Shown: positions 305 to 16,323, counted from the first letter of the stretch. The stretch: DNA of 64,000 nt from Minisyncoccota bacterium (GCA_016211945.1 JACRHV010000004.1:263472-327471), one strand, 5' to 3'. Numbers and translations are program-made. The notes: generated by a model from the sequence alone, not told the origin.

Positions 305-1714
305 CTATTTTTTCTCCACTTTCTTTATTTGAAGTGCTAACTCATCCAACTGTTCCTGAGTAACCGGTGCTGGTGCATCCATCACTGCGGTACGACCTGT
401 GGAGGTCATTGGAAATGCAATCGCTTCTCTTAATGAAGTTTCGCCGGCAAGAATCATAACGTGCCGATCAAGTCCGAGCGCAATACCACCATGTGGCGGT
501 GTTCCAACCTCAAAAGCCTCGAGCATATGCCCAATGCTCGCTTGAATCTCAGCATCAGAGTATCCCATGGTGCGCATGGTTGCTCGCAACACCTCGGGTT
601 CATGCGCCCGAATACTTCCGCCGCCAGCCTCGTATCCGTTGCACACTAAGTCATATTGCGTTGTTAAAATTTCCCCGGTATGCTCGCCTTTTAAATGCCA
701 TTCCACATGGTCATCAATCGGGCGACTGAATGGATTGTGCGTAAAGGTCCATCCACTCTTTCCATCACGAACTTCAGCAACATCTCCTTTATCAACTTGT
801 TTGAAAAATGGAAATTTTATAACCCAAGCAAAAGCTAGTGTTCCGTCTTTTTTTTCTTCCTCGGTACGCAGGTCAAATTTATCTGCGCCAAATTTTTTGA
901 CTGCATCAGCGTATTCAAATATCGGAAATGTCTCATCTTTAAGTTTTCCGCCAACTGTTTTTATCGCAGTTTTTACCACATCTTCCACGGTTTTCATCAC
1001 GTCTTCTTGCTTCACAAAACTCATTTCCAAATCAAGCTGGGTGAACTCAAATCCGCGGTCAGCGCGCAAGTCTTCATCGCGCATGCATCGTGCAATTTGA
1101 TAGTATCGCTCAACGCCGGCAGTCATAAGAAGTTGTTTGTATTGCTGTGGGCTTTGCGGAAGTGCGTAGAATTTTCCAGGTTGGAATCGCGATGGCACTA
1201 AGAAGTCACGCGCACCTTCTTTTGTAGCTTTTGTAAGGAGTGGTGTTTCCACCTCAACAAATTCTCTTTTATGGAGTTCTTCGCGAATTGCCTGGAAATA
1301 CTTGGAGCGAAGCCGCATGATCTTCTGCATACGCTCTCTGCGAAGATCGAGGTAGCGGTATCGCAGTCGTACTTCCTCGTTTACTTCAAGCCCATCACCC
1401 TCAACCTGTAATGGAAGTTCCTTCGCTTTGTTCAATACCGTGTATTCCTGAACATCAATCTCAACCATTCCTGTCGCGAGTTTCTCGTTGACCATGTTTG
1501 CAGGCCGCTCTTTGATGAGTCCAACAACTTCGAGAACAGACTCTACTGTCAACTCACCCATTTTTTGAAATCCAACGCACTGCACAAAACCTGATCGATC
1601 GCGTAGATCAATAAACGTCAATTTTCCATGGTCGCGTTTTGTTGCTACCCACCCCTGAAGTTTTACTGATTCACCCACGCGTTTTGGTGCCTCACCGATC
1701 ATTGTTCTTTCCAT
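305..1714 (-). CDS. aspS: aspartyl-tRNA synthetase
   Basis: The ORF 305..1747 carries class II aaRS motifs (FHNPFSRP, QSPQQYKQLLM, GLDRHVMILAGETSLREAIAFP). Start refined to the internal ATG at 1712-1714 (MERTMIGEAP...), which is preceded by AGGAGGAACT. Confidence 0.9.
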   Translation of the reverse strand: MERTMIGEAPKRVGESVKLQGWVATKRDHGKLTFIDLRDRSGFVQCVGFQKMGELTVESVLEVVGLIKERPANMVNEKLATGMVEIDVQEYTVLNKAKELPLQVEGDGLEVNEEVRLRYRYLDLRRERMQKIMRLRSKYFQAIREELHKREFVEVETPLLTKATKEGARDFLVPSRFQPGKFYALPQSPQQYKQLLMTAGVERYYQIARCMRDEDLRADRGFEFTQLDLEMSFVKQEDVMKTVEDVVKTAIKTVGGKLKDETFPIFEYADAVKKFGADKFDLRTEEEKKDGTLAFAWVIKFPFFKQVDKGDVAEVRDGKSGWTFTHNPFSRPIDDHVEWHLKGEHTGEILTTQYDLVCNGYEAGGGSIRAHEPEVLRATMRTMGYSDAEIQASIGHMLEAFEVGTPPHGGIALGLDRHVMILAGETSLREAIAFPMTSTGRTAVMDAPAPVTQEQLDELALQIKKVEKK

Positions 1715-1747
1715 AGTTCCTCCTGTTTTTCCTGCGTATTCGGGCAT

Positions 1748-2060
1748 AAAAAAAGCACGATGCCCTTTATCTGCGAAAGGGTCTTCGTGCCTGAAGACGG
1801 TGCCACCTACTCGTATCTTATTCCAGCTATTTCGGGCTTACCCGATGCGGCTCATCTGGTGTCAACAGCGTCCATACCGCATAACTTCTGAGGAAAGTGT
1901 ACCAAAAATTGGGAGCTTGACAAGACCCAGTTCCAAGGGGTATCCTTCACAAGATCATGAAAAACTGTTGGCATCTCATTACCAATCAATACATTTTTGT
2001 CCTTCGCGGACAGAGAGGTTTGGTGGCGTAGATGCAGTAGATTAGCAGCAGAAACGAAAT
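1748..2060 (-). promoter_or_regulatory. Putative T-box riboswitch leader controlling aspS
   Basis: On the minus strand immediately 5' of the aspS SD: T-box-like core AGUAGGUGGCACCGUC (GGTGG-N-ACCG; the + strand reads cggtgccacc at 1798-1807). It is followed by an intrinsic terminator GCACGAAGACCCUUUCG...AAAGGGCAUCGUGC plus a U7 run (+ coordinates 1748-1790). An alternative antiterminator pairing GUCUUC/GAAGAC overlaps the terminator 5' arm. The UGGC bulge would pair with the GCCA 3' end of tRNA-Asp (discriminator G). Stem I and the specifier were not resolved by eye. Confidence 0.5.
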
Positions 2061-2062
2061 AC

Positions 2063-2093
2063 CAAACCTCCGAAAAGAATCGGAGGTTTTTTT
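2063..2093. terminator. Stable hairpin with flanking A- and T-runs (bidirectional intrinsic-terminator-like)
   Basis: AAACCTCCGAAAAGAATCGGAGGTTTTTTTG has an 8-bp GC-containing stem and a T7 run on the + strand. It sits between the aspS leader region and the first small ORF at 2120. Confidence 0.4.
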
Positions 2094-2119
2094 GTTTCTA
2101 GGGAAAGGAGGAGAAAATA

Positions 2120-2290
2120 CATGGAGAAAAATAGCGGTCGAGTAGAAATGCCAATGCTTCCAGTGTCGCTCGAGGGTTGGCATGAAGAATCGAATACTAT
2201 AGGTACACAACATATGCAGAAGTATGTGAGTTCTGCATTGCGGATGCGTGCGAGTTTAGAGCGAAAAAATATACAAGAAAAAAGAAAATA
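2120..2290 (+). CDS. small hypothetical protein (56 aa)
   Basis: ATG preceded by GGAAAGGAGGAGAAAATAC. Translation MEKNSGRVEMPMLPVSLEGWHEESNTIGTQHMQKYVSSALRMRASLERKNIQEKRK. Below the 60-aa cut-off of the supplied ORF track. First of four consecutive SD-led small ORFs. Confidence 0.35.
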
Positions 2291-2300
2291 AGGAGGAAAG

Positions 2301-2474
2301 ATGAGTAATGAAAAAGACCCCGTACGAGAAGCAGCAATTCAAGCACTAACTTCTCGAGGTATTACACCAGAAGAAATGAGTTCTGACCAATATGAGGCAG
2401 CTGTAAAAAAACAAATGGAAGCAATTAGTATCACAAGTACAGCGGTGAGGTTATTGGCTGGAGCAACAAATTAA
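2301..2474 (+). CDS. small hypothetical protein (57 aa)
   Basis: ATG preceded by AAGGAGGAAAG. Translation MSNEKDPVREAAIQALTSRGITPEEMSSDQYEAAVKKQMEAISITSTAVRLLAGATN. Not in the ORF track (<60 aa). Confidence 0.4.
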   Translation: MSNEKDPVREAAIQALTSRGITPEEMSSDQYEAAVKKQMEAISITSTAVRLLAGATN

Positions 2475-2487
2475 ACAAAGGAGAACT

Positions 2488-2685
2488 ATGCCAAATTTTG
2501 ATACATTACAACCAGAAAAAGTGGCGGCTATTACAAAAGCGATTAAAAATAAAAATACTGCTTATCTAAATGATGGTGATGGTGATTTATTTATTGCCGT
2601 TTTACGTGGAGAAATAGAACTTCCAGATGTTTCTTCTGCGTTCATTACTACTGCGCGTGAGTGGTATCAATCATTGACTTCTTAG
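2488..2685 (+). CDS. small hypothetical protein (65 aa) with a DGDGD acidic motif
   Basis: ORF-track entry. ATG preceded by AAAGGAGAACT. Contains LNDGDGDLFIAVLRGEIELPD. Confidence 0.4.
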   Translation: MPNFDTLQPEKVAAITKAIKNKNTAYLNDGDGDLFIAVLRGEIELPDVSSAFITTAREWYQSLTS

Positions 2686-2696
2686 TCGGAACAAAT

Positions 2697-3053
2697 ATGA
2701 CAGATAAGTTACTCGTTGTTGTTGGCGGTATCCACAATACTGAGGTTCGTAAACTAGGAAATAGTGTATCCGGAAACGTGCTCGTTGACGGAAATTATCG
2801 AGATATTATTCCTAAAATACGAGAAAAAAGACCCCACACCGTTGTCGTTTGCGGTGCATTAATTGCAGTATGTATAGGAAGAATAGCAGAGGCTGCATTA
2901 GAATATGGGTCCAACGTTATTATCGACCTCAAGCACTGTCGTATAGATGAACATGATTCTGGAGATACAAGTAATCTTGACAAAAGACATGCTGAACTCA
3001 ATACCTATTGGCCACATGTTGTTGATGACCAAAATGTACAAATTATTTCCTAA
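2697..3053 (+). CDS. hypothetical protein (118 aa), possible small alpha/beta fold
   Basis: In-frame ATG inside track ORF 2661..3053. Translation MTDKLLVVVGGIHNTEVRKLGN...VVVCGALIAVCIGRIAEAALEYGSNVIIDLKH. Alternating hydrophobic beta-strand-like segments. No recognisable family. Confidence 0.35.
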   Translation: MTDKLLVVVGGIHNTEVRKLGNSVSGNVLVDGNYRDIIPKIREKRPHTVVVCGALIAVCIGRIAEAALEYGSNVIIDLKHCRIDEHDSGDTSNLDKRHAELNTYWPHVVDDQNVQIIS

Positions 3054-3056
3054 TTC

Positions 3057-4820
3057 TTACTCTATATCCTTCCCAATCATCTGAATTTCTGTCCTTCCAT
3101 TCCACACATTAATCTGCAACATCCCAACAATATCCATTGTCTGTCCAATTCGTAGATCCCGCATCATCCCTGCTTTTCCAAAAAATAGTATTGGGAACTG
3201 CATATCATCGCTCCCACGGACGACAACTTTCAGGTGTTGTTTCTCTTTTCCCATCACCTGCGCATCGAGCAACTTCAGACCGCGAACTGCAAAAAATGGA
3301 GTGGGATTTGCCGAACCAAACGGTTCAAATATTTCTAAAGATTTTACTGTTTCTGCTCGAACAAGCTTCACATCAATCTCGCACTCTACCGGCAGTGTTT
3401 TTACTAATAACTCTTTTCCGATAGTTTCCTTCGCCAACTTTCGCAGTTTTTCTGTAAATATTGCAATATTCTCGTTCAACAATGAGAATCCTGCGGCCAT
3501 TGGGTGACCACCAACGTCGATCAGCTCATCTCGTACTTTTCGCAGCAATTCGGTAATATGAATACCGGCAAGTGAGCGTGCGCTTCCCTTTGCAATTTTC
3601 TCTCTTCGAGAAATCACGATTGCAGGTTTTGCAAAATCCTCAACTAACTTTCCAGCAACCAACCCAATAACTCCTTCATGAAACTCAGTGCTTTCCACGA
3701 TAATAATGTGATCGTCCTGCCAACTTTCTTGATGTTTCCGTGCGAACTCGATCATCGAGGTGGTGAGTGTTTGTCGTTCGATATTCGTGTTCTGCACCTT
3801 GCTCGCGTACATGCGTGCAGTCTCGATCTTCTTGCTACAGAGCATCCGCAGTCCATCTTTTGGATCACCAATGCGTCCCATCGCATTGATGCGTGGCGCG
3901 ATCGCGTAATTAATGGCGTATGTATCAATCAATTCTTTTTGGAGTTGCGCAACCTCGATGAGCATGAGGAGGCCGGGGCGAGTTGTTTTCCGCAGCGCCT
4001 CAATACCAAACTTCGCAAAACTCCTGTTTGCACCCAGAAGGGGAACTTGATCCGCGATAGTAGCGATCGCACAGAGATCGAGCATTGACTCGGCTTTTTT
4101 TGGATTGAGTTCACGCGCGAGCATCCAGCCAACCGTGGTGCCGCAAAGATGCGTTGTGTGGATAATCACATCGGCAACCGGAAAAATAGGAGAAGAGGTC
4201 CGACCTCCTTTTTTTCTCTCTGGTTGGTGGTGATCAGTTAAGATCGTATGAACTCCCGCGGCTTTGAGCCGCGCAAATCCCTCGAGGGCAACGATGCCAT
4301 TATCAACGCTGATGAGGAGGTCCGACCTCTTCGGTGTTTTTTGAGAACCCTCGAGCACTTCATCGAGAGCCACCGGGGATAACCCATATCCATGTCGTTT
4401 TCTGTCTGGAATAAACGGCATCGCCTTTATTCCCATCTCGTACAATGTCTCCCATAACACCGAGGTTCCGCAAATTCCATCACAGTCATAGTCACCAAAA
4501 ACCACAACGTTCCAGTTTTCTCTTTTTGCCTGTTCAATCAGGGAAATTGCTTTCTTCATTTCCTTGGGATCGATACCAACGTCTTTGAGCGTGAGAGAAA
4601 GTGGCGAGGGGGGAGATCGGAACAAGGTCCGACCTCTTTCTTTCACAAGGCCGCGGTTTTCAAACAAAACAGCAGTGAGTTCATCCGCATTTTTCGGCAC
4701 AGTTGGAGACTGTATTTTCCATTGCATGGACAGCATCATACCAGATTTCGCCATGATATGATTGAGGTATGAGAGACATAAAATTCGCGCTTCCTCCAGC
4801 AGTGCAAAAAATTCTTTCAA
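3057..4820 (-). CDS. recJ: single-stranded-DNA-specific exonuclease RecJ
   Basis: DHH motif region VVVFGDYDCDGICGTSVL, DHHQP, DHH-associated domain and C-terminal OB-like region. The true start is probably one of the internal Met (around 4727-4754) because cca begins at 4769 on the opposite strand. Confidence 0.85.
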   Translation of the reverse strand: MKEFFALLEEARILCLSYLNHIMAKSGMMLSMQWKIQSPTVPKNADELTAVLFENRGLVKERGRTLFRSPPSPLSLTLKDVGIDPKEMKKAISLIEQAKRENWNVVVFGDYDCDGICGTSVLWETLYEMGIKAMPFIPDRKRHGYGLSPVALDEVLEGSQKTPKRSDLLISVDNGIVALEGFARLKAAGVHTILTDHHQPERKKGGRTSSPIFPVADVIIHTTHLCGTTVGWMLARELNPKKAESMLDLCAIATIADQVPLLGANRSFAKFGIEALRKTTRPGLLMLIEVAQLQKELIDTYAINYAIAPRINAMGRIGDPKDGLRMLCSKKIETARMYASKVQNTNIERQTLTTSMIEFARKHQESWQDDHIIIVESTEFHEGVIGLVAGKLVEDFAKPAIVISRREKIAKGSARSLAGIHITELLRKVRDELIDVGGHPMAAGFSLLNENIAIFTEKLRKLAKETIGKELLVKTLPVECEIDVKLVRAETVKSLEIFEPFGSANPTPFFAVRGLKLLDAQVMGKEKQHLKVVVRGSDDMQFPILFFGKAGMMRDLRIGQTMDIVGMLQINVWNGRTEIQMIGKDIE

Positions 4821-6118
4821 CGCTTCATACCGCGGGATTTGATGGATATATCGTTGGTGGCGCGGTGCGCGATGTTTTGTTGGACAAACCCGTAAAAGAC
4901 TGGGACTTTACGACCAACGCAACGCCGGAACAAATCCAAAAACTTTTCCCTGACAGTTTTTATGATAACCAGTTTGGTACTGTTGGTATCGCCGGCAAAC
5001 ATCTCAATGATAAAGAAAATCCGGAGGCGGTGTACGAAATTACCACCTACCGTAGTGAAGGTCTCTATACAGATCATCGCCGCCCCGACTCCGTAACTTG
5101 GGGAAAAACGGTGGAGGAGGATCTCCAACGCCGTGATTTTACGATCAATGCGATGGCTCTTGGTGAAAACAAAATTATTGACCCCTATCATGGTCAAGAT
5201 GATATTAAAAATCATGTGATTCGAGCGGTTGGCGATCCAAGCATGCGGTTTCAAGAGGATGCGCTTCGTATGATGCGCGCGGTTCGCATTGGCGCACAGT
5301 TGGGATTTGCGGTTGAACAACTCACTATAGCGGCGATCACACAGAATGCTCATCTCCTTGAACACATTAGCTGGGAACGTATTCGTGATGAGTTTTTGAA
5401 AATCCTCGTTTCTGATTATCCGGAAGAAGGAATTCAACTCCTCGCATCCACCAACCTGTTAAAGCATATTTTGCCGGAACTTTTGGAGTGCCGAGGAGTC
5501 CAACAAGCACACCATCATATTTACGATGTGTGGACACATACGCTCAAAGCGGTAAACACCTGTCCCTCAAAAGATCCTATTGTGAGACTTGCTGTTCTTT
5601 TGCATGACATTGCCAAACCACTGACTGCGGACACGAGTTCTGGTACTGTCACGTTTTATAATCACGAAGTTTTGGGTGCGCGCGTTGCGCGGAAAGTCGC
5701 GGAACGATTCCGACTGTCTAAAAAAGATATTCAGCGCGTATTTATGCTCGTGCGATGGCATATGTTCGTCTACGACCCAAAGGTCACTGACGCGTACATC
5801 CGTCGATTTATCCGGCGGGTGGGAGTCGAGTACATTTCGGACATGATTGCGTTACGCGTGGCGGATCGGGTTGGAAGTGGCGCTACGGCTACAAGTTGGC
5901 GGTTGGAGGAGATGCAAAAACGGATTGAGGGACAGCTCCAAAAAACGTTTTCTATGAATGATATGGCGATTGATGGCAATGACTTGATGAAAGAATTTGG
6001 TTTGAGACCGGGGCCAGAAGTTGGAAAACTATTGAAGATGTTGTTTAAGGATGTCGTGGAGCATCCGGAACATAATACAAAAGAATATTTAATGGAGAAG
6101 GCGAAGAAACTTCTATAG
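4769..6118 (+). CDS. cca: CCA-adding tRNA nucleotidyltransferase with HD domain
   Basis: GGAVRD polymerase-beta motif near the N-terminus; HD motif region (HDIAKP, VADRVGSG); length 449 aa. Confidence 0.85.
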   Translation: MRDIKFALPPAVQKILSTLHTAGFDGYIVGGAVRDVLLDKPVKDWDFTTNATPEQIQKLFPDSFYDNQFGTVGIAGKHLNDKENPEAVYEITTYRSEGLYTDHRRPDSVTWGKTVEEDLQRRDFTINAMALGENKIIDPYHGQDDIKNHVIRAVGDPSMRFQEDALRMMRAVRIGAQLGFAVEQLTIAAITQNAHLLEHISWERIRDEFLKILVSDYPEEGIQLLASTNLLKHILPELLECRGVQQAHHHIYDVWTHTLKAVNTCPSKDPIVRLAVLLHDIAKPLTADTSSGTVTFYNHEVLGARVARKVAERFRLSKKDIQRVFMLVRWHMFVYDPKVTDAYIRRFIRRVGVEYISDMIALRVADRVGSGATATSWRLEEMQKRIEGQLQKTFSMNDMAIDGNDLMKEFGLRPGPEVGKLLKMLFKDVVEHPEHNTKEYLMEKAKKLL

Positions 6119-6125
6119 TCCTCAA

Positions 6126-6443
6126 CTATTTCTTCATAAAATAATCTACAAATGCCTTATTAAAATAGCTGAGCATTGCAACCCCCAATTTTGGCAACCT
6201 CAATAGCACTTCATCTAACTCAGCCGCCACTTCAAGAATACTCATTTTGCTTTGAATAAAAATGTTTACCATGCGCAAAGCTGTTCCCGAATCAATTTTA
6301 AATTCTTCAATGAGTAAATTTCGAAATTGATCCCAAGTAAAGCTTTCTAACTTGACATTTACCCTTTGTCTTACTGCTTCAATTCTGTCTGTATGTGAAG
6401 AATATGTGTGTTCGCCCGCCATTTCAATTATCTTGTTTGTCAT
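6126..6443 (-). CDS. hypothetical protein (105 aa)
   Basis: ORF-track entry. Start preceded by TAAGGAGGCAT on the minus strand. 8 nt downstream of the preceding small ORF. No family recognised. Confidence 0.4.
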   Translation of the reverse strand: MTNKIIEMAGEHTYSSHTDRIEAVRQRVNVKLESFTWDQFRNLLIEEFKIDSGTALRMVNIFIQSKMSILEVAAELDEVLLRLPKLGVAMLSYFNKAFVDYFMKK

Positions 6444-6451
6444 ATGCCTCC

Positions 6452-6811
6452 TTAATTTGTCGTCTCTTTTGGATGTATTTTTTCATAATATGCATTGACA
6501 ACTCGAACAAGCGTATTTCTCAACGTTGCATCCCAAGCAACATCATCTTCATTCATTGCAAAGAGATCGACGAGTGAAAACGTTTGCATTTGCATAAACT
6601 GTACAACTGCTCGAATTTCATCATCTGTGAACGTACCATCTAATGTTTGTCTCAGCTCTGTAAAAGCAGTGCGAGCGTGTTTATCTGTAATTTCCGATAA
6701 ATACGCAGTTACTATTGGTTTTTTCGGATGTCCATTAAAAAGAACATAAATCTCCCCTGTATTTCCTGACTGATCTAACGGGAGACCTACCGCTTTTACA
6801 ATATCTTTCAT
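6452..6811 (-). CDS. hypothetical protein (about 119 aa)
   Basis: Track ORF 6452..6826 begins with TTG. An internal ATG (MKDIVKAVGL...) is preceded by GGAGGAGACTCAT, so the start is placed at 6811. Confidence 0.4.
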   Translation of the reverse strand: MKDIVKAVGLPLDQSGNTGEIYVLFNGHPKKPIVTAYLSEITDKHARTAFTELRQTLDGTFTDDEIRAVVQFMQMQTFSLVDLFAMNEDDVAWDATLRNTLVRVVNAYYEKIHPKETTN

Positions 6812-6900
6812 ATGAGTCTCCTCCAATACCGAAATCGAACAAATGCAACAGGAAAAAATGTTCTCACATCAATCCTTTCAGGACAGACAACCGCATTGTA

Positions 6901-7782
6901 TCACTTCCGTCTTTTCCGGACAAACGCATCCCACACGACTAACAACGGTGCCGCAGTAAAGGTTGAGGAGTACGTTCCTGTTACTGTTCCCACCAACAAC
7001 GCGAACACAAACCACTGAATTGTGTTTCCTCCAAACAACCACAGCACAAAAAGCATAAAAATAATGGTCATGGAGTTGTTAATGGATCGTGACATTGTTT
7101 CTGTCACCGCAGTATCAACCAAATCAATATACGGTTTCCCCGTGTTCCTGCGACGAAGTTCGCGGATACGATCGTAGACCACAATCGTATCGTGCACACT
7201 GAACGACAGAATCGTCAAAACTGCCGTGACAAACAAGACATCAACCTCAACATGCATAAAGTGCCCAAGCAAACTGAATACGCCAAACAACACAAGTGAG
7301 TCGTGGAACATTGCTAATACCGCGCACACCCCATACTTCAATTCACTAAAGCGGTAGGCGACATAGAGTGTGATACCGCTTGCAGACAGTAACATCGCGA
7401 TCAATGTTTTCACAAGAAGTTCTCGACCTAAAACTGGCCCCACCGTTTCAAATCTCGTTTCTTTCACCTCAGCGAATGATTGTCTCAATTTCTCCATTGC
7501 GGCATCTTTTTTTGTCGTATCAATGGGTTTTGCTTTCAATAAAATGCTTTTGTCAACAATTCGAATTTCTGAAATATCCAAACTCTCCCCAAAACCCTTT
7601 CGTATCTCATCTTCAGAAACCGCTTGTCCATCTTTTGGTTCTACAAGAACTTGCAACTCCGTTCCACCGGTAAAATCGATACTTGGCCGAAGACCATACA
7701 ACGTTAAAGAAATAAATCCCGGGATAATCACCAATCCAGAAATCAAAAAATAGAGCCATGTAAATCGCATAAATCGAATCAT
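6901..7782 (-). CDS. secF: protein translocase subunit SecF
   Basis: 293 aa, multi-TM, SecD/SecF family signature. Overlaps the secD stop (ATGA-type coupling at 7779-7782). Confidence 0.9.
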   Translation of the reverse strand: MIRFMRFTWLYFLISGLVIIPGFISLTLYGLRPSIDFTGGTELQVLVEPKDGQAVSEDEIRKGFGESLDISEIRIVDKSILLKAKPIDTTKKDAAMEKLRQSFAEVKETRFETVGPVLGRELLVKTLIAMLLSASGITLYVAYRFSELKYGVCAVLAMFHDSLVLFGVFSLLGHFMHVEVDVLFVTAVLTILSFSVHDTIVVYDRIRELRRRNTGKPYIDLVDTAVTETMSRSINNSMTIIFMLFVLWLFGGNTIQWFVFALLVGTVTGTYSSTFTAAPLLVVWDAFVRKRRK

Positions 7783-9167
7783 GTTTTCTCCGTTTGTGTA
7801 GGATCTTTCAAAAAGATACGAAGAAGCGTTCGCGTGACAACAATACCAGTAAATAATCCTACAAGAATTCCCAAGGCTAGGGTAAGTGCGAAACCCCGAA
7901 CCATACCGCTACGATTCAAAAACTCAAACTCAAACGGATTAAAAAGAATGAAACTTGTAAATAGTGTTGCAACGTTTGCGTCTTTAATACTGTCCCACGC
8001 TCGGCCAAATCCCAATCGCATTGCTAGATCGAACGGCTTGCCCAGTCGCAGTTCTTCCTTCATCCGTTCAAAGATTAAAATATTACTGTCCACCACCATC
8101 CCAATAGACAACAAAAGACCGGCAATACCGGGTAATGTTAAGGTAATTGGCATCAATTTATAGATCGCAATCGTGATGAGGGCGTACATCGCAAGTGCGA
8201 GATCGGCCAACATACCTTTCCAGCCGTACAACAGAATCATAAAAAGCGCGACCAACCCAACACCGATAAGTCCAGCACGAGCCGTCTTCTCAACAGCTTC
8301 TTTTCCTAAACTCGCGCCAACCGTTTCCTGCTGCACAACCTGAATTGGGACCGGCAAGGCGCCTGCATTTAACTGCACACTAAGTTGTTTTGCTGACTCA
8401 ACAGTAAACCCGCCACTAATTTCTGCGATCCCACTCAAAATCGCCTCGTTCACACTCGGAAGTGTCACCGGAAAATCATCCAAAAAGATACCCACGCGTT
8501 TTCCAACATTACGTGCGGTGATTTCACCAAACTTTTTCTTCCCTTCATCGCTAAACTCCAAGGTCACAATCGGCTGTGCATTTTTACTACTGAACTGCAC
8601 TCCCGATCGTTTTAAGTCTTTCCCTGTCAACCCCGTGGGGAGAAAGTTCGCAAACGGATCTTGCTGAACTTGTGCTTGAGTCTGAGGTTTTGCCGACTGT
8701 GTAGACTCTTCACGAAAATCAAGTTGCGCCGTCGTACCAATCAATGCAACTGCCTGCGACGCATCGGTTACTCCAGGCAATTCCACAATAATACGATAGG
8801 TATTACCTGAAAACGATGTCTTAATAGTAGACTCACTCACACCATACAAATCAACACGACGAGCAATAATTTCGCGCGCACTTTGAAATGCAGACTCTCT
8901 ATCTGTTTGCGCAATCTTGCTCATATCTGCTTCTAGCACCACACGCGTTCCGCCTTGAATATCCAAACCCATCTTTAACTCCAAATCGCGCTTAAACGGG
9001 ATGTTATACTTTGATAAATCGAGAGCAGGTCGATCAAACTGATTCGAAATATCGATATTTTTCCAATGCAACTCAATAGGTACTTTTGCGGGCAATGCAA
9101 TAACCAAACATACAGCAGCCAAAAGAATAAGAAACACCAGTGTTTTTAATGGCAGTTTGTTTTTCAT
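7779..9167 (-). CDS. secD: protein translocase subunit SecD
   Basis: 462 aa with a periplasmic domain plus a C-terminal 6-TM SecDF-type region (GIAGLLLSIGMVVDSNILIFERM). Confidence 0.9.
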   Translation of the reverse strand: MKNKLPLKTLVFLILLAAVCLVIALPAKVPIELHWKNIDISNQFDRPALDLSKYNIPFKRDLELKMGLDIQGGTRVVLEADMSKIAQTDRESAFQSAREIIARRVDLYGVSESTIKTSFSGNTYRIIVELPGVTDASQAVALIGTTAQLDFREESTQSAKPQTQAQVQQDPFANFLPTGLTGKDLKRSGVQFSSKNAQPIVTLEFSDEGKKKFGEITARNVGKRVGIFLDDFPVTLPSVNEAILSGIAEISGGFTVESAKQLSVQLNAGALPVPIQVVQQETVGASLGKEAVEKTARAGLIGVGLVALFMILLYGWKGMLADLALAMYALITIAIYKLMPITLTLPGIAGLLLSIGMVVDSNILIFERMKEELRLGKPFDLAMRLGFGRAWDSIKDANVATLFTSFILFNPFEFEFLNRSGMVRGFALTLALGILVGLFTGIVVTRTLLRIFLKDPTQTEKT

Positions 9168-9763
9168 GGGAGCGCTGGTTTTCTTGAAAGCATGTCCTCT
9201 TCGTCACCAATCACCATGACGCGTGGAAGTTCAAGGATGCCGATTAAAAACGGATCGCGACGTGTTTTGCGAAACTCAAGTTCTTCCTCGCTCATCACCG
9301 TGTAGTTTATTTCACGCCCACGAGTTTTTTCCTCTTCTCGTACGAGCGCCGCTAGCTCCGGTAAAACAATATCACCGACAACTAAAATATCCACCTCATC
9401 GTGCATACGCTGTTCGTGTTTGGCAAACTTTCCGGTAAACATCACATATTTCACTGTTCCTAATTTTTTCCGATTTTTTTTGATTTCATGTCCCAAACCA
9501 GTGGTTTTTGCAACCAAACGGGTGAGCTCTGAATAAAACTCGTATCCACGATTGAGTGTGTAGTATTTGCGATTTCCACGATCTTCACATCGCACCATGC
9601 CGGCTGTTGTCATACGATCAAGCTCGCGACGAACAGCATTAATCTCCTCGTCAATCTTTCGCGTCATCTCACGCACATACCACATTTCACTGGGATTCTC
9701 GAAGAAAAGTTGGAACAATTTTACGCGGACCTTGGACAAGATAAAATCTGATAACTCTGCCAT
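9164..9763 (-). CDS. winged-helix DNA-binding protein with a C-terminal nucleotidyltransferase-like region; putative regulator
   Basis: N-terminal wHTH-like segment (KVRVKLFQLFFENPSEMWYVREMTRKIDEEINAVRRELDRMTTAGMV). C-terminal D-x-D-containing segment (DEVDILVVGD). Its stop overlaps the secD start (ATGA at 9164-9167). Confidence 0.45.
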   Translation of the reverse strand: MAELSDFILSKVRVKLFQLFFENPSEMWYVREMTRKIDEEINAVRRELDRMTTAGMVRCEDRGNRKYYTLNRGYEFYSELTRLVAKTTGLGHEIKKNRKKLGTVKYVMFTGKFAKHEQRMHDEVDILVVGDIVLPELAALVREEEKTRGREINYTVMSEEELEFRKTRRDPFLIGILELPRVMVIGDEEDMLSRKPALP

Positions 9764-9836
9764 AGTTGGCCCTCACTATACACGATTTTTTTGAAAACGA
9801 AAAGTACTCAAAAACACAACTATTTCGCTCTATATC

Positions 9837-11048
9837 TCAATACGTCGGTTTTATTTCCATGTTCACAACAGAAATCCAGATTGGACCTCGAGCAAACTTC
9901 ACTGGTTTGCCTCCAGCCGAAAACGTCATACGTGATTCACGGTCTTTCTTTGACCATGTCGCTTCTATAGCATTACCGTTCTGGAATATCCATGCTTTCC
10001 CTGTGCCACCAGTCACAATGTAATTGTGTTTGTGCACATCGACCGACGGATATTCTTTGGTCTGAATCACCACCACATTTTTCATCTCAATTTGCGCGTT
10101 CGTATTGAGGTCTAGGTGTGGCTCTCCCCCCATCACGCGCTTGTACATGTTTGTTGCAAGGTTATAGTCCCACTCAACAGTAAAATCTTTATATCCTGTC
10201 CAGAATTCGTAGGCTACCTTGTTTACTGTCCCTCGCGAACCTGAAGCCGCCTCATCCTGGAATAGCCACTTGACGAACTTGTCACGCCAATCTGCTCCCG
10301 GGACTATTTTCCCTCGTACCTTCGTGTCCGGGCTCATGTTTGTGTATTTGCGTTTTTCACCGAGCGCCCACAGCCGTTCTGTGCTGGACTCCATGGTGTG
10401 TTCTGTCGCCAAGTCCTCTTTATCTGGCAAACGATTGTAGTTGCGGACAAATGTTGGATAGCCTATGGAGAACTGGTTGAGATCATTGCGCAGTGTCCAT
10501 CCGTAGTCACTCAAATGTTCCAGTGCGCGGACGCGCGGATCGGTATCATCACCATTTGATCCACCCACGTGCGCATACAACGGCATGTTGTACTCAGAAG
10601 CCATATCCAAGAAAAACTGGCGAGCAGAACGAACCGGTGCGATGATCGTGTCTTTTGCCTGCGCCTCACAGTAAAAGATCGGCATGAATCTGGTGATACC
10701 ACCCTCAACAACCGCTTCATACACAATGTCAGCTCTGCTCAAACCGGATTGAGGCCGCGCTTCCGTGTGATTTTCTATCATGACCGCGAGTGGACGACGA
10801 GTATCCCACGACTCCCGCTCGGTGACGGTGTACATTTTCCCGTTGAGCGGACATTCCTCTGTTTTTGGCGCTTCAGGGGCAACCGCTAATCGGTTGGATG
10901 GATCTGCTGTTGGAACTGCGGTTTGTTCAATTTGTGCTGGATTGATCAGACTTGAAGAAGAGTCCCCACTCACCATACTGAACACGGCAAACGTTCCAGC
11001 GGCTGAGATGAGATAGGCCAATAGTGCGGGAAGAATAACGCGTTTCAT
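9837..11048 (-). CDS. secreted DUF3048-family protein (YerB-like)
   Basis: Signal peptide MKRVILPALLAYLISAAGTFAVFS. Central segment ADIVYEAVVEGGITRFMPIFY resembles DUF3048 proteins of Firmicutes. Confidence 0.5.
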   Translation of the reverse strand: MKRVILPALLAYLISAAGTFAVFSMVSGDSSSSLINPAQIEQTAVPTADPSNRLAVAPEAPKTEECPLNGKMYTVTERESWDTRRPLAVMIENHTEARPQSGLSRADIVYEAVVEGGITRFMPIFYCEAQAKDTIIAPVRSARQFFLDMASEYNMPLYAHVGGSNGDDTDPRVRALEHLSDYGWTLRNDLNQFSIGYPTFVRNYNRLPDKEDLATEHTMESSTERLWALGEKRKYTNMSPDTKVRGKIVPGADWRDKFVKWLFQDEAASGSRGTVNKVAYEFWTGYKDFTVEWDYNLATNMYKRVMGGEPHLDLNTNAQIEMKNVVVIQTKEYPSVDVHKHNYIVTGGTGKAWIFQNGNAIEATWSKKDRESRMTFSAGGKPVKFARGPIWISVVNMEIKPTY

Positions 11049-11518
11049 GAATGTCCTTTCATAGCTTGAGTGATAGCCTCTTGCTCTTCTTTCGAAAAAT
11101 CTTGTTTCTTGCCATTTTTCTGACGGATTTCCTTTGCGTACACTCGCGTCAAATCACGGCTATGCAGTGATGTTAGCACATATCCATCGTTGTCTGCATT
11201 AAGCAAACTCATCGAAAAACTTTGATTTCCACCCGTATCATCGAATGGATTGAATCGAACCATTGCGTATTTTTGAATGTTCTTTTTTGAGAGATCCTGG
11301 TGTTTTTCCAGGTTAAGGCGGAGTGTTTTTATTTCTTCCTGTTGTTTATTGAGTTTACTATCGATCAACTCAAGGATTGTTTTGAGATCTTTTTTACTAA
11401 CACCAGTAGTAAGAAGTTTAAACACTTGTTGTTGTTTTACGTACAGCACAGTGAGAGCTAAATACCAAAATACACTTAATCCTACGACAACGAGAAGCAT
11501 TACTTGTATATCCATCAC
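11045..11518 (-). CDS. membrane-anchored DUF4446-like protein
   Basis: N-terminal TM, coiled-coil segment, C-terminal YAMVRFNPFDDTGGNQSFSMSLLNADNDGYVLTSLHSRDLTRVYAKEI resembling the DUF4446 family. Overlaps the upstream gene by 4 nt. Confidence 0.45.
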   Translation of the reverse strand: MMDIQVMLLVVVGLSVFWYLALTVLYVKQQQVFKLLTTGVSKKDLKTILELIDSKLNKQQEEIKTLRLNLEKHQDLSKKNIQKYAMVRFNPFDDTGGNQSFSMSLLNADNDGYVLTSLHSRDLTRVYAKEIRQKNGKKQDFSKEEQEAITQAMKGHS

Positions 11519-11861
11519 TCCATTGTATGAGTGATATGGTAGACTTGTCCATATGGGACAGCACAGGACGCGCGAGCAAAAAGAGAAGGCTGCGGCAAGG
11601 CGAATTCAGCAACCAACCGTTACCTATTCGTTGGCTGGTTTGACACCAATTGAGAGGCGGGGTGTTGTTTCAGCAAAACAACAGGCGGAACAGAAAGAGT
11701 TTGTGAACTATTTTCGACATGACATGGTAAAAACGTTGGTGGTGTGCTTGGTGATTGCCGGGATCATTGCAGGGTTGTGGTTGAAACTTCGATAGTGATG
11801 GATGTATCAATTTTTCTTTACTTGGTGGTGTACAATATTGGCATAAAGAAAATGGAGGTTT

Positions 11862-12221
11862 ATGCCACCAAGATTAGATAAGTTGACTCGCATAGACAGA
11901 TTGTATTTCGAGGTTGCAACATTGAATGCGGACGGATTCTTTCGAGGTTTTCTTAAAAAATATCCAGAAACCTTTAATTGTGAACATTACCATACTCCAG
12001 AAATGATCCAAAAAAGATTGGCTGAAGCAATCTTCTTATCATCCCTTTTACCAAGGCACTATACGATAACTTTTGTAAAAGCAGTCCCTCCTGTTGGCAA
12101 TGTTAGCCGATCAGAAGTTCATACATTGCGGACAGGAACCGTTACATGGAGTTTGTGGGCAGAATTTGCTGATCAACGGGGAGTGGCATGCTACTTTGCA
12201 AAAACTGAGGCTCAACAATAA
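11862..12221 (+). CDS. hypothetical protein (119 aa)
   Basis: ORF-track entry; ATG preceded by AAATGGAGG. No family recognised. Confidence 0.3.
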   Translation: MPPRLDKLTRIDRLYFEVATLNADGFFRGFLKKYPETFNCEHYHTPEMIQKRLAEAIFLSSLLPRHYTITFVKAVPPVGNVSRSEVHTLRTGTVTWSLWAEFADQRGVACYFAKTEAQQ

Positions 12222-12228
12222 GAAAAAA

Positions 12229-13299
12229 CTACACCACCAACTTCCCCTCTTTCAAAATCGTTTTCCCGTCAGCAATGACAACACTTCCTTTTGAGGTCAT
12301 GTCTTTAATGATGTCCATGTGAATCGCGGATTTGTTGTATCCTTTACACTCCTCATACGCTTCGCCCAACGCCATATGCACGGTTCCCTGCATCTTTTCA
12401 TCAAATAGCACGTTGTACATATAGTTTCGTATTCCAGGATTGGCGCCAACCGCAAACTCACCGAGCCTCCGTGCACCTTCATCCGTATCCAAAATCTTGA
12501 TGAGAAAATCCTGGTTTTCTGATGCTGTCGCCTTCACAACTTTTCCTTTTTCAAAAAAGAGATGAATATCTCGAATCATTTTTCCTTGGCGGAGAAGTGG
12601 GTAGTTAAAGTACACCTCACCTTCTACGGAATCATCGACTGGCGCAGTAAACGCTTCACCATCTGGCATGTTGTACTGTCCAGCGCATGGGATAAACAGA
12701 CGGCCTTTGGCTGAAAGTTTGAGGTTTGTCTTTTCGCCACGCACTTCAATAAGTTTTGCATTTGTCATCATGTCTGCGAGTTTTTTGAGGCGTGCGTATT
12801 CTTTTTTCCAATCTCTATTACAGGCGTTATAGAAAAAGTCACAAAAATCCTCGTATCCCATGTTGGCGTCTTGGGCCATCGCGGGGGTCGGGTAGTAGGT
12901 AAGCACCCACGGCTTTTTAATACTGATATCACGAATAGGTTTGAGAATCTTGGATCGAACAAGCATTTTTTTAGAGTCTGCTTGTGAGAGTTCACGTGTA
13001 TTTTGATCTGCCACAATCGTGATTGACTTGTCCGACCATTCTGCTAAGAATTTTGCAATCTCCGGCTTTGCGGTAAGTTGTTTTTCTTTTGCGTGGTCGA
13101 AGTAATATTTTGTTGTGTTTTCATCGCCGATATCAATGTATGGAAGCGAACCTACATCAATAAGCTTCTTAAACACTTCGCGAGCAAGTGGAAGGCCGAG
13201 AGGAGTTGTTACCTTTACCCATACTTTATCTAACGGCTTTGCCTTAATGGAATAGTTCACAAGAATATCTGCGAGTTTCGTGTTGCGTGAGTCGGACAT
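12229..13299 (-). CDS. aminopeptidase, M29 (AmpS/PepS) family
   Basis: C-terminal half (GEFAVGANPGI...FDEKMQGTVHMALGEAY...SAIHMDII) matches the thermophilic-aminopeptidase M29 signature. Confidence 0.65.
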   Translation of the reverse strand: MSDSRNTKLADILVNYSIKAKPLDKVWVKVTTPLGLPLAREVFKKLIDVGSLPYIDIGDENTTKYYFDHAKEKQLTAKPEIAKFLAEWSDKSITIVADQNTRELSQADSKKMLVRSKILKPIRDISIKKPWVLTYYPTPAMAQDANMGYEDFCDFFYNACNRDWKKEYARLKKLADMMTNAKLIEVRGEKTNLKLSAKGRLFIPCAGQYNMPDGEAFTAPVDDSVEGEVYFNYPLLRQGKMIRDIHLFFEKGKVVKATASENQDFLIKILDTDEGARRLGEFAVGANPGIRNYMYNVLFDEKMQGTVHMALGEAYEECKGYNKSAIHMDIIKDMTSKGSVVIADGKTILKEGKLVV

Positions 13300-13527
13300 G
13301 ATTCGGATATCATATCATACGAGAGTTGCAAAGCTGTTTTTGTTGTGATAGTATTTTCGTTGATGAGTCACGAAGAATTTCATACTGAACAAAATGAATT
13401 TTTCCTCCCTAAAGATTTACTTGGTTAGCACAGACCTCCACATCATCATTATGCGTATGCATACCCTGGGGAACAGCCTGAAGGCATTCGTTCAAGAATT
13501 CGCCAAGGAGTTGGAGGTCCAAAACAT

Positions 13528-13794
13528 TTGGAGATTGATGCAGAAATACATGGTCATATCCACAAAGCAAAAGAGAGTCCACTTCGTATAGGGGAGATTG
13601 TTACTATGACTTTTCTCTATGGTGGGAGAAAAGAAACATGGAAAGTTATAGTTGATACTATCCATCAACAAGGAACTGTTGTTAGGGGAAGTGGTGATAC
13701 TCCCATGATAATCCAAAACGATCCAGAAAATATTGGGTACGAAATTACCGGATTTTGCGTAGAGCTTATTTCAAGTGAAACCATTACTCATTAG
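13528..13794 (+). CDS. hypothetical protein (88 aa, TTG start)
   Basis: ORF-track entry starting at TTG, with GGAGG 11 nt upstream. Ends 4 nt into the rdgB gene on the opposite strand. Weak call. Confidence 0.25.
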   Translation: MEIDAEIHGHIHKAKESPLRIGEIVTMTFLYGGRKETWKVIVDTIHQQGTVVRGSGDTPMIIQNDPENIGYEITGFCVELISSETITH

Positions 13795-14375
13795 TTATAA
13801 TTTTGTAAATATTTCTTCATTTTCCCTAGCGCCTTCGCCCTATGTGAAATTGTATTTTTCACCTCATTCCCCAACTCACCAAATGTTTTCTCGTATCCAT
13901 TCGGAATAAAAATGGGGTCGTATCCAAACCCCCGGGACCCCCGCGGCTCTTCAGCAAGCTTTCCAACCACTTCACCAAAGAAACTGTTGTGCATCTGTGT
14001 AACTGGATCATATATAACAATGCATGACACAAACTTCGCTCCTCGCTTTGTTTGCCCTTCCATCGTCTTCAACAATTTTTGCACTCGCTCTTCATCACTT
14101 TTTGCGAATCGGGAAGAATATACTCCCAACTCCCCAGGAAGCGCCTCAACCTCGATACCAGAATCATCAGCTATCGTAAGAAGTCCAGAAATATCTCCCG
14201 CATGTTTTGCCTTGATCAGCGCATTCTCTTCATAGGTAGTTCCTGTTTCTTCCGGTTCGGGCACAGACAGGCTAATATCATCCAGAGTGAGAACCTCCCA
14301 CCCTATGGAACCGAGAACCTCCGAGATTTCTTTTTTCTTTCCCGCATTGTGCGTTGCAATCAATAATTTCTTCAT
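13791..14375 (-). CDS. rdgB: non-canonical purine NTP pyrophosphatase (RdgB/Ham1, dITP/XTP pyrophosphatase)
   Basis: LIATHNAGKKKEI N-terminus and FGYDPIFIP C-terminal motif; 194 aa. Confidence 0.85.
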   Translation of the reverse strand: MKKLLIATHNAGKKKEISEVLGSIGWEVLTLDDISLSVPEPEETGTTYEENALIKAKHAGDISGLLTIADDSGIEVEALPGELGVYSSRFAKSDEERVQKLLKTMEGQTKRGAKFVSCIVIYDPVTQMHNSFFGEVVGKLAEEPRGSRGFGYDPIFIPNGYEKTFGELGNEVKNTISHRAKALGKMKKYLQNYN

Positions 14376-15043
14376 GGTGTTATCATACGAGCAGTGCTAT
14401 GCAACCGCAATCTTCTCTTCGTCATACATTAGAAATCTTACAAAAAACATACATCTCCCACCCCATGCATGAGGCGTTTCACCACGATCCATTTCAGATG
14501 CTCGTGGCAGTGATTTTGTCCCAACGCGCCACCGATGCAATGACTATTTCCGTTGCCCAAAAATTGTTTGAAGTTACGCCGACACCACAGGCTATTACTG
14601 CCCTCAATATGCAAGTCTTAGAAAAGATTATTCGCCCTATCGGCTTCTTTCACACAAAGGCTCTTGCGTTACAAAAACTATCACGCGTACTCATCGAAAC
14701 ATTTGACGGCAAAGTTCCAACCACAGAATCTGAGTTACTTTCTCTCCCGCAAGTCGGCAGAAAAACCGCGAACATCATGCTGACCTTATTCTTTCACACT
14801 CCACAGATTGCGGTCGATGTCCATGTGCATCGCATCACAAACCGGCTTGGATGGGTCAACACAAAAACAGTTGAGGAAACCGAACTTTCGCTTACAAAAA
14901 TAATTCCAAAAGATTTGATTTATGATGTGAATCGAGTGTTTGTCCGCCATGGACAAGAAATATGTAGACCAATAAGTCCGAAATGTTCAATTTGTCCTGT
15001 GCAAAAATATTGCAAGAAAGTTGGGGTCACACAGTCAAGGTAA
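14354..15043 (+). CDS. nth: endonuclease III (HhH-GPD DNA glycosylase with 4Fe-4S cluster)
   Basis: HhH segment LPQVGRKTANIM and C-terminal CRPISPKCSICPVQKYC iron-sulfur motif. Confidence 0.85.
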   Translation: MQSIISSWCYHTSSAMQPQSSLRHTLEILQKTYISHPMHEAFHHDPFQMLVAVILSQRATDAMTISVAQKLFEVTPTPQAITALNMQVLEKIIRPIGFFHTKALALQKLSRVLIETFDGKVPTTESELLSLPQVGRKTANIMLTLFFHTPQIAVDVHVHRITNRLGWVNTKTVEETELSLTKIIPKDLIYDVNRVFVRHGQEICRPISPKCSICPVQKYCKKVGVTQSR

Positions 15044-15082
15044 AAAGCGGATATAAAGGTGTATACTGTAAAAAAGGAGGAG

Positions 15083-15339
15083 AAGTGGGAGGACTTAATG
15101 CGCTTAAGACTGGGGAAGTAGATGGATATCACGTGCGTTACGTTGCCCACAGTACAGATGGTCGAAGTGAGGAAGATGTTCATGCAGAATGTCGTGCTAT
15201 TTTAGAAAAGATTTCTCAATCAATGGCAACCGGGGAACTTATTCTTATGAGAAACGGAAATTCTTCTCAGGAACTTGTACACAAAAGTCATGTGGGCGAT
15301 CGTATCCAAAAAGGATGGGTTGTTGTTTCATTGAGGTAA
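15083..15339 (+). CDS. small hypothetical protein (about 85 aa, GTG start)
   Basis: AAGGAGGAGAA 3 nt upstream of the GTG at 15083 (an ATG at 15096 is also possible). In frame with track ORF 14983..15339. No family recognised. Confidence 0.3.
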
Positions 15340-15390
15340 ATCCACATCGTCACATTGCCCTCTTTCTCCCCCTTGGTATATAGTATCCCT

Positions 15391-16323
15391 ATGAACATTT
15401 CCTGTTCGTTCAAAGTTGCGATCGTTGGTCTTGGGAAGGTTGGGATGTCGGCGGCCTACGCAATGATGCTCGAAGGCACACCAACCGATATTATTCTCCT
15501 TGCACGTGATAAAGAGAAAGCGATTGGGGAAAAACTTGACCTCGAGCATGCACTTCCGTTTTTAGATTTTGTGAATATTATTGCAACAGATGATTATGCC
15601 GATCTCGCGGGTACCCATCTCGTGATTGTTACTGCGGGCGCCGCGCAAAAGCCTGGGGAAACTCGATTGGATTTGTGTGCAAATAACCGCGCCATCATGG
15701 CAGAGATCTTACCTAAAATTAACGCAGCTGCACCGGATGCAATTATCCTTATGATTGCAAATCCCGTCGATGTGTTGGTGCAGTTTGCCAACAGTATTTT
15801 GCCAAATGCAAAAGGTCGAATCTTTGGATCCGGCACCATGCTCGATACCGCTCGATTCCGTTTCCATCTTGCAGAAACGCTCCATGTGAATCCGAGAAGT
15901 GTCCATGCATACGTTTTGGGTGAACACGGCGACAGTTCTTTCCCCGTCTATGCAAATGCAACAGTTGGCGGACAAAAACTCATGGAGTTCCCCGGTATGA
16001 GCGCAGAAATTATTCAAGATGCGTACAAGAAAGCGCGCGAAGCCGCATATAACATTATCAAAGCAAAAGGTGCAACGTACTACGCGATCGGTGTGGTAGC
16101 AACCAAGATTATGGAGGCAGTGTTCTCTGATGCAAAAACTGTTCTCCCACTTTCTGTTCCACTGGATAATTACTATGGCCTTTCTGGAGTTTCATTGAGT
16201 GTTCCATGTATTTTGGGCGCGCGTGGCATTGAACAAGTGCTTCACCTTGATCTTTCACAAGAAGAGCAGGCAAATTTGAAAAAGTCAGCAGAAACACTTG
16301 CGCAATACAATAAAGAGTTATGA
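15391..16323 (+). CDS. ldh: L-lactate dehydrogenase
   Basis: KVAIVGLGKVGMSAAYAM Rossmann segment, AGAAQKPGETRLDL, IANPVDVL, GSGTMLDTARFRF, VLGEHGDS. Start placed at the ATG at 15391 rather than the upstream TTG. The stop overlaps the next gene (ATGA). Confidence 0.85.
   Translation: MNISCSFKVAIVGLGKVGMSAAYAMMLEGTPTDIILLARDKEKAIGEKLDLEHALPFLDFVNIIATDDYADLAGTHLVIVTAGAAQKPGETRLDLCANNRAIMAEILPKINAAAPDAIILMIANPVDVLVQFANSILPNAKGRIFGSGTMLDTARFRFHLAETLHVNPRSVHAYVLGEHGDSSFPVYANATVGGQKLMEFPGMSAEIIQDAYKKAREAAYNIIKAKGATYYAIGVVATKIMEAVFSDAKTVLPLSVPLDNYYGLSGVSLSVPCILGARGIEQVLHLDLSQEEQANLKKSAETLAQYNKEL

Follow-up and report, generated by a model that had tools for sequence, protein, structure and literature searches.

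A candidate four-gene cassette of small proteins in the variable recJ-aspS slot of a Candidatus Pacebacteria genome

We describe a block of four small open reading frames (ORF1 to ORF4) lying between recJ and aspS in a 64,000-nucleotide (nt) stretch of DNA from a Minisyncoccota bacterium (GCA_016211945.1, JACRHV010000004.1:263472-327471; hereafter the window). The host genome is that of an uncultured, metagenome-assembled member of Candidatus Pacebacteria (Microgenomates, candidate phyla radiation (CPR)). On the account that we favour, with moderate confidence, the block is a real four-gene cassette that was found in this genome only and occupies a variable recJ-aspS slot within the conserved secD-secF-cca-recJ-aspS block; it would be accessory and contains no recognisable toxin-antitoxin or defence system. 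In its favour stand the coding signature of the ORFs, the variability of the slot among related genomes, the assignment of ORF4 to a rare protein family, and a structured leader upstream of the ORFs which would act as a transcription attenuator.

Results

Coding signature of the four ORFs

The original prediction, made from the sequence, described four consecutive plus-strand ORFs of 56, 57, 65 and 118 residues, and these are present at the positions given in Table 1. ORFs on this one strand cover 95.3% of positions 2101-3056. Coverage in 2000 composition-matched simulations averaged 36.7% and peaked at 91.6%, so that none of them reached the observed value. All four ORFs are already annotated by NCBI with identical boundaries as hypothetical proteins (MBI5151363-66), and each protein stands by itself, as a singleton, when ~15 billion proteins are clustered at 90% identity.

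A codon log-odds model was trained on 43 long ORFs of the window. Each of the four ORFs scores best of six in its own frame (Table 1), all other frames being negative. For comparison, the 99th percentile of spurious small ORFs within real genes (n=160) is 0.087 bits/codon, and segments of real genes of equal length average 0.239 bits/codon. By this comparison the four ORFs look like translated genes of this genome, ORF1 being the weakest.

A strong Shine-Dalgarno (SD) sequence had been predicted ahead of every ORF. This is correct for ORF1, ORF2 and ORF3, where the SD stands 9, 4 and 4 nt from the ATG, respectively, and where that of ORF2 overlaps the stop codon of ORF1; across the window an SD match of at least 6 nt precedes just 1.7% of all ATGs. 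No SD was found upstream of the ORF4 ATG, where the sequence is acttcttagtcggaacaaatATG, nor before an alternative GTG at 2661. The N-termini of homologues agree with a start of ORF4 at the ATG at 2697, and ORF4 is probably translated via coupling to ORF3. The ORFs are separated by 9, 13 and 11 nt, so that the claimed spacing of 10-13 nt holds for the second and third gaps and not for the first. ORF1, ORF2 and ORF4 have one reading frame in common, and ORF1 and ORF2 are parted by a lone in-frame TAA. The acidic DGDGD motif reported for ORF3 is present, and ORF4 is, as described, convergent with recJ, the two stop codons (3051-3053 and 3057-3059) being 3 nt apart with no terminator between them. 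The idea of a deliberately translated small-protein operon fits the codon scores, the three strong SDs, the tight spacing, and the promoter-like site and structured leader described below, and it is reasonable to regard the four ORFs as genuine small protein genes with the coding signature of the genome.

The recJ-aspS junction in related genomes

The locus was compared with 80 loci from related genomes, anchored on aspS, the closest aspS being 73% identical. The order secD-secF-cca-recJ-aspS is retained in at least 11 of the 80, and recJ and aspS are co-directional in the relatives. No match to any of the four ORFs was found by tblastn in the 80 loci. The gap between recJ and aspS measures 30-105 nt in five of them (L005, L012, L015, L045 and L052) and 224-1950 nt, with unrelated genes, in other relatives. 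Opposite-strand ORFs of 69-208 residues lie in the gap of L001, L035, L058, L072 and L075, and a gene which we take from its translation to be RelA/SpoT-like lies in that of L024 and L033. In L002 (8059-9465) and L010 (8514-9917) the slot holds proteins of ~467 residues, encoded on the opposite strand and convergent with recJ as the cassette is; the two are weakly related to each other (22% identity, E 5e-5). When the gap genes of the relatives were compared with window positions 1700-3200 by tblastn, nothing fell below E 0.04. Because gap size and occupants differ among the relatives and no occupant resembles the block, we regard the junction as a variable slot, which the cassette occupies in this genome only among the 80 related loci examined. 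The GC content of the block is 0.35-0.40 and that of the recJ and aspS flanks 0.45-0.50, a difference of 5-10 points. A mobile element was considered and rejected, since the block has no notable repeats at its flanks, the window holds no paralogous DNA, and no integrase is present.

Three further observations concern this region. A second low-GC islet (6126-6826, minus strand, GC 0.36-0.37) lies between cca and secF and carries two orphan genes of 105 and 124 residues, for which neither the libraries searched nor the 80 related loci held a match; among relatives the secF-cca junction varies just as much, from 2 to ~2800 nt. A Logan contig, SRR12113407_612526 (L102), corresponds to window positions 2758-16443 with one mismatch in 13,686 nt and represents an independent assembly of the same population; it ends inside ORF4 at 2758, which may be due to heterogeneity among strains at the cassette or be no more than an ordinary assembly break. 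Finally, the 12-mer AGGTCCGACCTC occurs three times, in recJ only (4196-4207, 4318-4329 and 4625-4636), as against 0.13 copies expected and with three copies reached in none of 100 shuffles; the copies occupy two reading frames of recJ, encoding GRT twice and RSDL once.

Searches for relatives of the four proteins

Searches of Pfam, NCBIfam, PHROGs and PADLOC gave no significant match for any of the four ORFs (none better than E 0.07), and no family in PADLOC-DB v2 was matched by any of them at E<=1. The earlier suggestion of an addiction or phage-defence module thus finds no counterpart in these four libraries. That none of the proteins belongs to a recognised family holds for the curated libraries but not for ORF4, for which distant homologues were recovered by exhaustive phmmer.

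For ORF1-3, phmmer against the PDB gave nothing below E 0.1, and no relatives were found in viral contigs, by tblastn in phage and plasmid records, or by tblastn in the loci that carry ORF4 homologues. A word-indexed homology search with a concatenated ORF1+2+3 query missed even the sequences themselves and was uninformative. ORF1-3 are thus orphans as far as tested, a status that is unproven because this wide search gave no information; on our account they would be small accessory proteins that are either young or evolving fast. A likeness of ORF3 to a 69-residue ORF that follows an ORF4 homologue in locus L093 ('LRGE') was rejected, as BLASTP gave no alignment.

A rare family to which ORF4 belongs

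The word-indexed search with ORF4 returned ORF4 itself alone, and with the family profile it returned members already found; metagenome and viral contigs held no close relative. Exhaustive phmmer against 1.84 billion representatives identified eight genuine relatives of 91-126 residues with 28-40% identity, seven of them of 116-126 residues and the eighth, P0004, a truncated gene call of 91 residues. Two other phmmer matches, P0003 and P0010, were set aside as repeat-protein false positives. From the phmmer relatives we built a family alignment (A1), in which G53, C59, L78, R82 and D87 are invariant. Its consensus reads VVVG-x-x-DN-x-E ... P-D-x-V-x-x-x-GG-x-T-x-x-CVP in the N-terminal part and V-x-IDL-x-x-CR-x4-D-x-GD-x-x-NL-x-x-R in the C-terminal part, and ORF4 aligns end to end with the full-length members, N-terminus included. 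A degenerate DNA pattern for the last family motif led to three further loci (L093, L094 and L099), and the ratio of nonsynonymous to synonymous substitution rates (dN/dS) within the subclade that they form is 0.4-0.5, a value that points to moderately constrained coding sequence. ORF4 belongs to a family of ~120 residues that is rare, had not been named before and has no Pfam model.

Predicted fold and relation to the isochorismatase-like superfamily

AlphaFold2, run on ORF4 with the family alignment, gave a confident model, with a predicted local distance difference test score (pLDDT) of 87.7 and a predicted template modelling score (pTM) of 0.83; the model from the single sequence was poor (62.3). 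The small alpha/beta domain that had been proposed for ORF4 is what the model predicts, with the topology beta-alpha-beta-alpha-beta-alpha-beta-alpha-beta. The fold, of three alpha/beta/alpha layers, can be superposed on those of solved isochorismatase-like members: its structural matches include 8bkd, 1im5, 1yac, 3txy and 6xix, among others, over ~100 residues at ~3 Å, and the best Foldseek match is Staphylococcus aureus PncA (E 1.1e-3, template modelling (TM) score 0.55). The isochorismatase-like matches are rivalled in structural score by periplasmic binding proteins and by a de novo Rossmann design, and a viral fold library gave generic matches only.

At the sequence level, the profile of A1 matches many isochorismatase-family sequences in the PDB (best E 0.002), always over one segment, in which C59 coincides with the GxxTxxCV Cys of 4l07, 3pl1 and 2h0r. 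In an hhalign comparison with Mycobacterium tuberculosis PncA, whose sequence agrees with the 3pl1 segment from the PDB alignment, C59 falls on C138 (76% probability, 50 columns). We take the motif Cys of these proteins, C138 of PncA included, to be the catalytic Cys. The Pfam model of the superfamily, PF00857, scores ORF4 at 13.5 bits (E 0.079), below the gathering cut-off of 27, and matches just four of nine family members at E<=1.

Like the isochorismatase-like superfamily (PF00857; PncA, YcaC, RutB, N-carbamoylsarcosine amidase), ORF4 is predicted to have three alpha/beta/alpha layers around a parallel sheet and carries G-x-x-T-x-x-C-V, after which come a helix and a hydrophobic strand. 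It differs in size, the ORF4 family having 116-126 residues and the superfamily 170-220 (~60 more), and in that the family lacks the segment bearing the metal-binding and Lys residues. A1 contains no invariant or near-invariant Lys that could complete an Asp-Lys-Cys triad, and the alignments to solved members span the Cys segment only. Where the Asp at the end of β1 would be expected, the family consensus has Gly directly after the strand, with Asp three residues on, a position at which ORF4 has His. Its own motif, D-L-x-K-C-R-x4-D-x-G-D-x-x-N-L with the invariant R82 and D87, is likewise different from the superfamily. We place ORF4 outside PF00857 because it has no conserved Lys, Gly where the β1-end Asp would be expected, a length shorter by ~60 residues and a score below threshold. 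From the model, we regard it as a divergent and shortened form of the isochorismatase/nicotinamidase (cysteine hydrolase) fold which retains the element formed by the strand, the nucleophile-elbow Cys and the helix. ORF4 most likely acts via the invariant Cys59 with Arg82 and Asp87, as a putative small thiol-dependent enzyme or ligand-binding module.

Structure of the leader

The hairpin noted earlier ahead of the operon is found at 2064-2089, just upstream of the ORF1 SD, and is followed by T7. Together these form an intrinsic terminator which ends 8 nt before that SD. Further upstream, GAGGTTTGGT (2015-2024) pairs with ACCAAACCTC (2061-2070) over 10 nt with 100% complementarity, which yields a candidate antiterminator helix. 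As this helix and the terminator share 2064-2070, the two are mutually exclusive. A third stem, P1, would sequester the 5' arm of the antiterminator and so serve as an anti-antiterminator. In the terminating state the region 1940-2125 has a minimum free energy of -58.3 kcal/mol (z -4.84). Two promoter-like sites, placed back to back, precede the leader and match consensus at 10 of 12 and 9 of 12 positions (Table 1).

On our best reading of these pairings, the leader would be an attenuator that terminates by default. It shares with the trp and phe leaders (RF00513, RF01859) a four-segment layout in which 1:2, 2:3 and 3:4 can pair, together with a U7 terminator directly before the first gene and a short ORF that ends at segment 2. 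The cassette leader differs from these attenuators in that its candidate leader ORF, 1957-2031, lacks both an SD and any run of regulatory codons, in that the downstream genes are not biosynthetic, and in that no Rfam family reaches the gathering threshold in the leader (the best, Trp_leader, scores 24.7 bits against 41, and the Phe leader is also sub-threshold). We identified no sensor in the leader, that is, no SD-led leader peptide and no Rfam riboswitch or T-box at gathering.

The aspS leader on the other strand (1715-1890, minus) also has a terminator, a stem at 1790-1755 followed by U7, which lies ~35 nt ahead of the aspS SD. Immediately upstream of this terminator, AGUAGGUGGCACCGUCUUC resembles a T-box motif, and the UGGC within it would fit the G discriminator base of tRNA-Asp. 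A T-box was not confirmed by Rfam, whose T-box model had no match in the window even at E<=10 and none in six relatives.

Table 1. Features of the recJ-aspS interval and its flanks, in window coordinates; coding scores are codon log-odds in the ORF's own frame.
Feature	Position	Strand	Description
ORF1	2121-2291	+	56 residues, basic, isoelectric point (pI) 9.7; SD AAGGAGG at 2105-2111; 0.141 bits/codon; HZA34_02190; orphan
ORF2	2301-2474	+	57 residues, acidic, pI 4.9; SD AAGGAGG at 2290-2296; 0.320 bits/codon; HZA34_02195; orphan
ORF3	2488-2685	+	65 residues, acidic, pI 4.6, DGDGD; SD AAGGAG at 2478-2483; 0.297 bits/codon; HZA34_02200; orphan
ORF4	2697-3053	+	118 residues; no SD; starts 11 nt past the ORF3 stop; 0.192 bits/codon; HZA34_02205
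recJ (context)	3057-4736	-	convergent with ORF4
aspS (context)	305-1714	-	start at SD-led ATG at 1714; leader ~1715-1890
Promoter-like site	1917-1946	+	TTGACA-18 nt-TATCCT; consensus match
Promoter-like -35	1923-1918	-	TTGTCA; faces aspS; overlaps the plus-strand -35, back to back
Candidate leader ORF	1957-2031	+	24 codons, MKNCWHLITNQYIFVLRGQRGLVA, then stop; speculative; ends just past the antiterminator 5' arm
Leader stem P1 (candidate anti-antiterminator)	1965-2048	+	-29 kcal/mol, z -4.15; would sequester the antiterminator 5' arm
Candidate antiterminator helix (I6)	2015-2070	+	-22.8 kcal/mol, z -5.44
Predicted intrinsic terminator (I7)	2064-2096	+	10-bp stem, 6-nt loop, T7; -14.9 kcal/mol, z -4.44

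Neighbourhoods of the ORF4 homologues

Conservation of the four-gene block, which had been proposed as a check on the prediction, was not found: ORF4 homologues occur alone beside unrelated genes. Since no relative of ORF1-3 lies beside any ORF4 homologue, the four-gene order is not a conserved unit. Among the neighbours, the labels HAD, GIY-YIG, BrnT and CopG are precomputed Pfam hits, and those of glpX, YbaK, GNAT, RelB/RelE-like and excisionase-type helix-turn-helix (HTH) genes are presumed assignments that we read from the ORF translations. P0006 (L081) follows three unrelated small ORFs (101, 111 and 67 residues) and precedes a HAD hydrolase; P0009 (L086) lies 6 nt past a glpX-like gene; P0007 (L084) is isolated and adjoins a GIY-YIG gene; and P0004 (L092) lies in a small-gene region with a BrnT/CopG pair ~4 kb off. 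The L093 copy stands between a YbaK-like gene and a 69-residue ORF, just downstream of a RelB/RelE-like pair, and the L099 copy adjoins another RelE-like pair and an excisionase-type HTH gene. In L094 (1064-1446 of that locus, minus strand) the copy consists of two separate ORFs, 53 and 57 residues long, and probably represents a frameshifted pseudogene or an error in assembly. The ORF4 family lives in accessory neighbourhoods.

As a separate observation, the ORFs of 111 and 67 residues upstream of P0006 (489-824 and 987-1190 of L081) resemble paralogues, with the common motifs G-x-QG-[ST]-T-x-Q-x-DP-x-DL and, at the C-terminus, YRT-x-GK; they are unrelated to ORF1-3.

Discussion

We suggest that the cassette would be transcribed from its own promoter, placed back to back with that of aspS, and that the transcript would pass through a leader of ~140 nt in which P1 and the terminator together impose default termination. 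Read-through would occur only when P1 is blocked and the antiterminator forms. Default termination with an alternative antiterminator would therefore make expression of the cassette conditional.

Several points weigh against this account. ORF1 has the weakest coding score of the four. No homologue was found for ORF1-3, hence their translation has no evolutionary support, and the sole wide search made with them was uninformative, so that remote relatives could exist. The promoter is a consensus match of a kind that is as frequent in shuffled sequence, and no leader homologous to the proposed attenuator was found among the related loci. Within its family, moreover, ORF4 has His (GGIHNTE) where most members have the Asp of the DN motif after β1.

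The leader also admits another interpretation, possible but less probable than not, in which 1950-2096 is an independent small RNA of ~140 nt, or an insulator that separates the aspS promoter and leader from minus-strand transcription of recJ. The strong folding and the canonical terminator at the end of the region are in keeping with it, as are the want of an SD-led leader peptide or known riboswitch among our findings and the calling of the hairpin on the minus strand too. Against it stand a 10-nt sequence 36 nt upstream that matches the 5' arm of the terminator with full complementarity and the greater stability of the resulting antiterminator over the terminator, features by which a switch is recognised. 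In addition, the minus-strand tail, GGTATTTCGT, makes a poor U-tract, and the terminator ends just 8 nt before the ORF1 SD. Downstream of the leader, it is unlikely that ORF4 is the sole gene and that ORF1-3 arose by chance or lack function within a long 5' region, or are very recent proto-genes without established function. ORF1-3 are indeed singletons with no relatives in any informative search, ORF4 homologues elsewhere stand without them, a single in-frame TAA separates ORF1 from ORF2, and the lowest coding score is that of ORF1. Yet each of the three scores above the 99th percentile for spurious ORFs and does best in its own frame, three consecutive SDs of at least 6 nt at the correct spacing are hard to reconcile with the 1.7% of ATGs that are so preceded, and the stop-free coverage of the block was never reached in simulation.

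We give very little credence to the notion that the ORFs are remnants of a decayed larger gene of the recJ-aspS slot, broken by stops and frameshifts. The common reading frame of ORF1, ORF2 and ORF4, the ~467-residue genes that L002 and L010 carry in the same slot, convergent with recJ, and the clearly frameshifted ORF4-family copy in L094 could be read in this way, but the gap genes of relatives do not match the block at the threshold given above, ORF4 is full-length relative to its family, N-terminus included, and each of ORF1-3 has an SD of its own. It is also very unlikely that the block is a toxin-antitoxin or anti-phage module in which the tiny proteins are antitoxins or regulators and ORF4 the effector. 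The cassette shares with type II toxin-antitoxin modules small, tightly spaced, co-directional genes at an accessory, low-GC site, and toxin-antitoxin genes lie near ORF4-family genes at three loci (L092, and L093 and L099 by reading of translations only). It has four genes rather than two, however, with no toxin or antitoxin domain detected, no significant match for any ORF in PADLOC, Pfam, NCBIfam or PHROGs, and no conserved pairing; no recurrent partner adjoins the ORF4 homologues, whose neighbours include glpX, a HAD hydrolase, YbaK and GNAT genes. Toxin-antitoxin pairs are common in CPR accessory regions, and proximity to them is therefore weak evidence. A more ambitious extension of our own account, of which we are doubtful, would make the ORF4 family an undescribed minimal cysteine-hydrolase-like domain, with its own catalytic set of Cys59, Arg82 and Asp87, which serves as the effector of CPR accessory or conflict cassettes and is here combined with three small proteins that arose de novo or evolve fast, under an attenuator of a new type that depends on a leader peptide or a factor and switches the cassette on.

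We return, then, to an accessory four-gene cassette in a variable slot. Orphan small genes between housekeeping genes are the rule in CPR/Patescibacteria genomes, and the cassette resembles such lineage-specific small proteins in that its genes are orphans, or nearly so, between conserved housekeeping genes; it is set apart from this background only by the attenuator-like leader and the family assignment of ORF4. Because such cassettes are ordinary in CPR genomes, the interest of the finding is low to moderate: no function is established for the cassette proteins, the practical value is modest, and the arrangement will not surprise a specialist. Of four 'hypothetical proteins', one can now be assigned, to a minimal isochorismatase-like fold predicted from the model, and its family could show how far this fold can shrink while keeping the nucleophile elbow. 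The recJ-aspS and secF-cca junctions are documented as slots for swapping lineage-specific genes in Microgenomates. The leader, finally, provides a candidate terminator/antiterminator switch in a CPR genome, a group in which, to our knowledge, few regulatory RNAs have been characterised.

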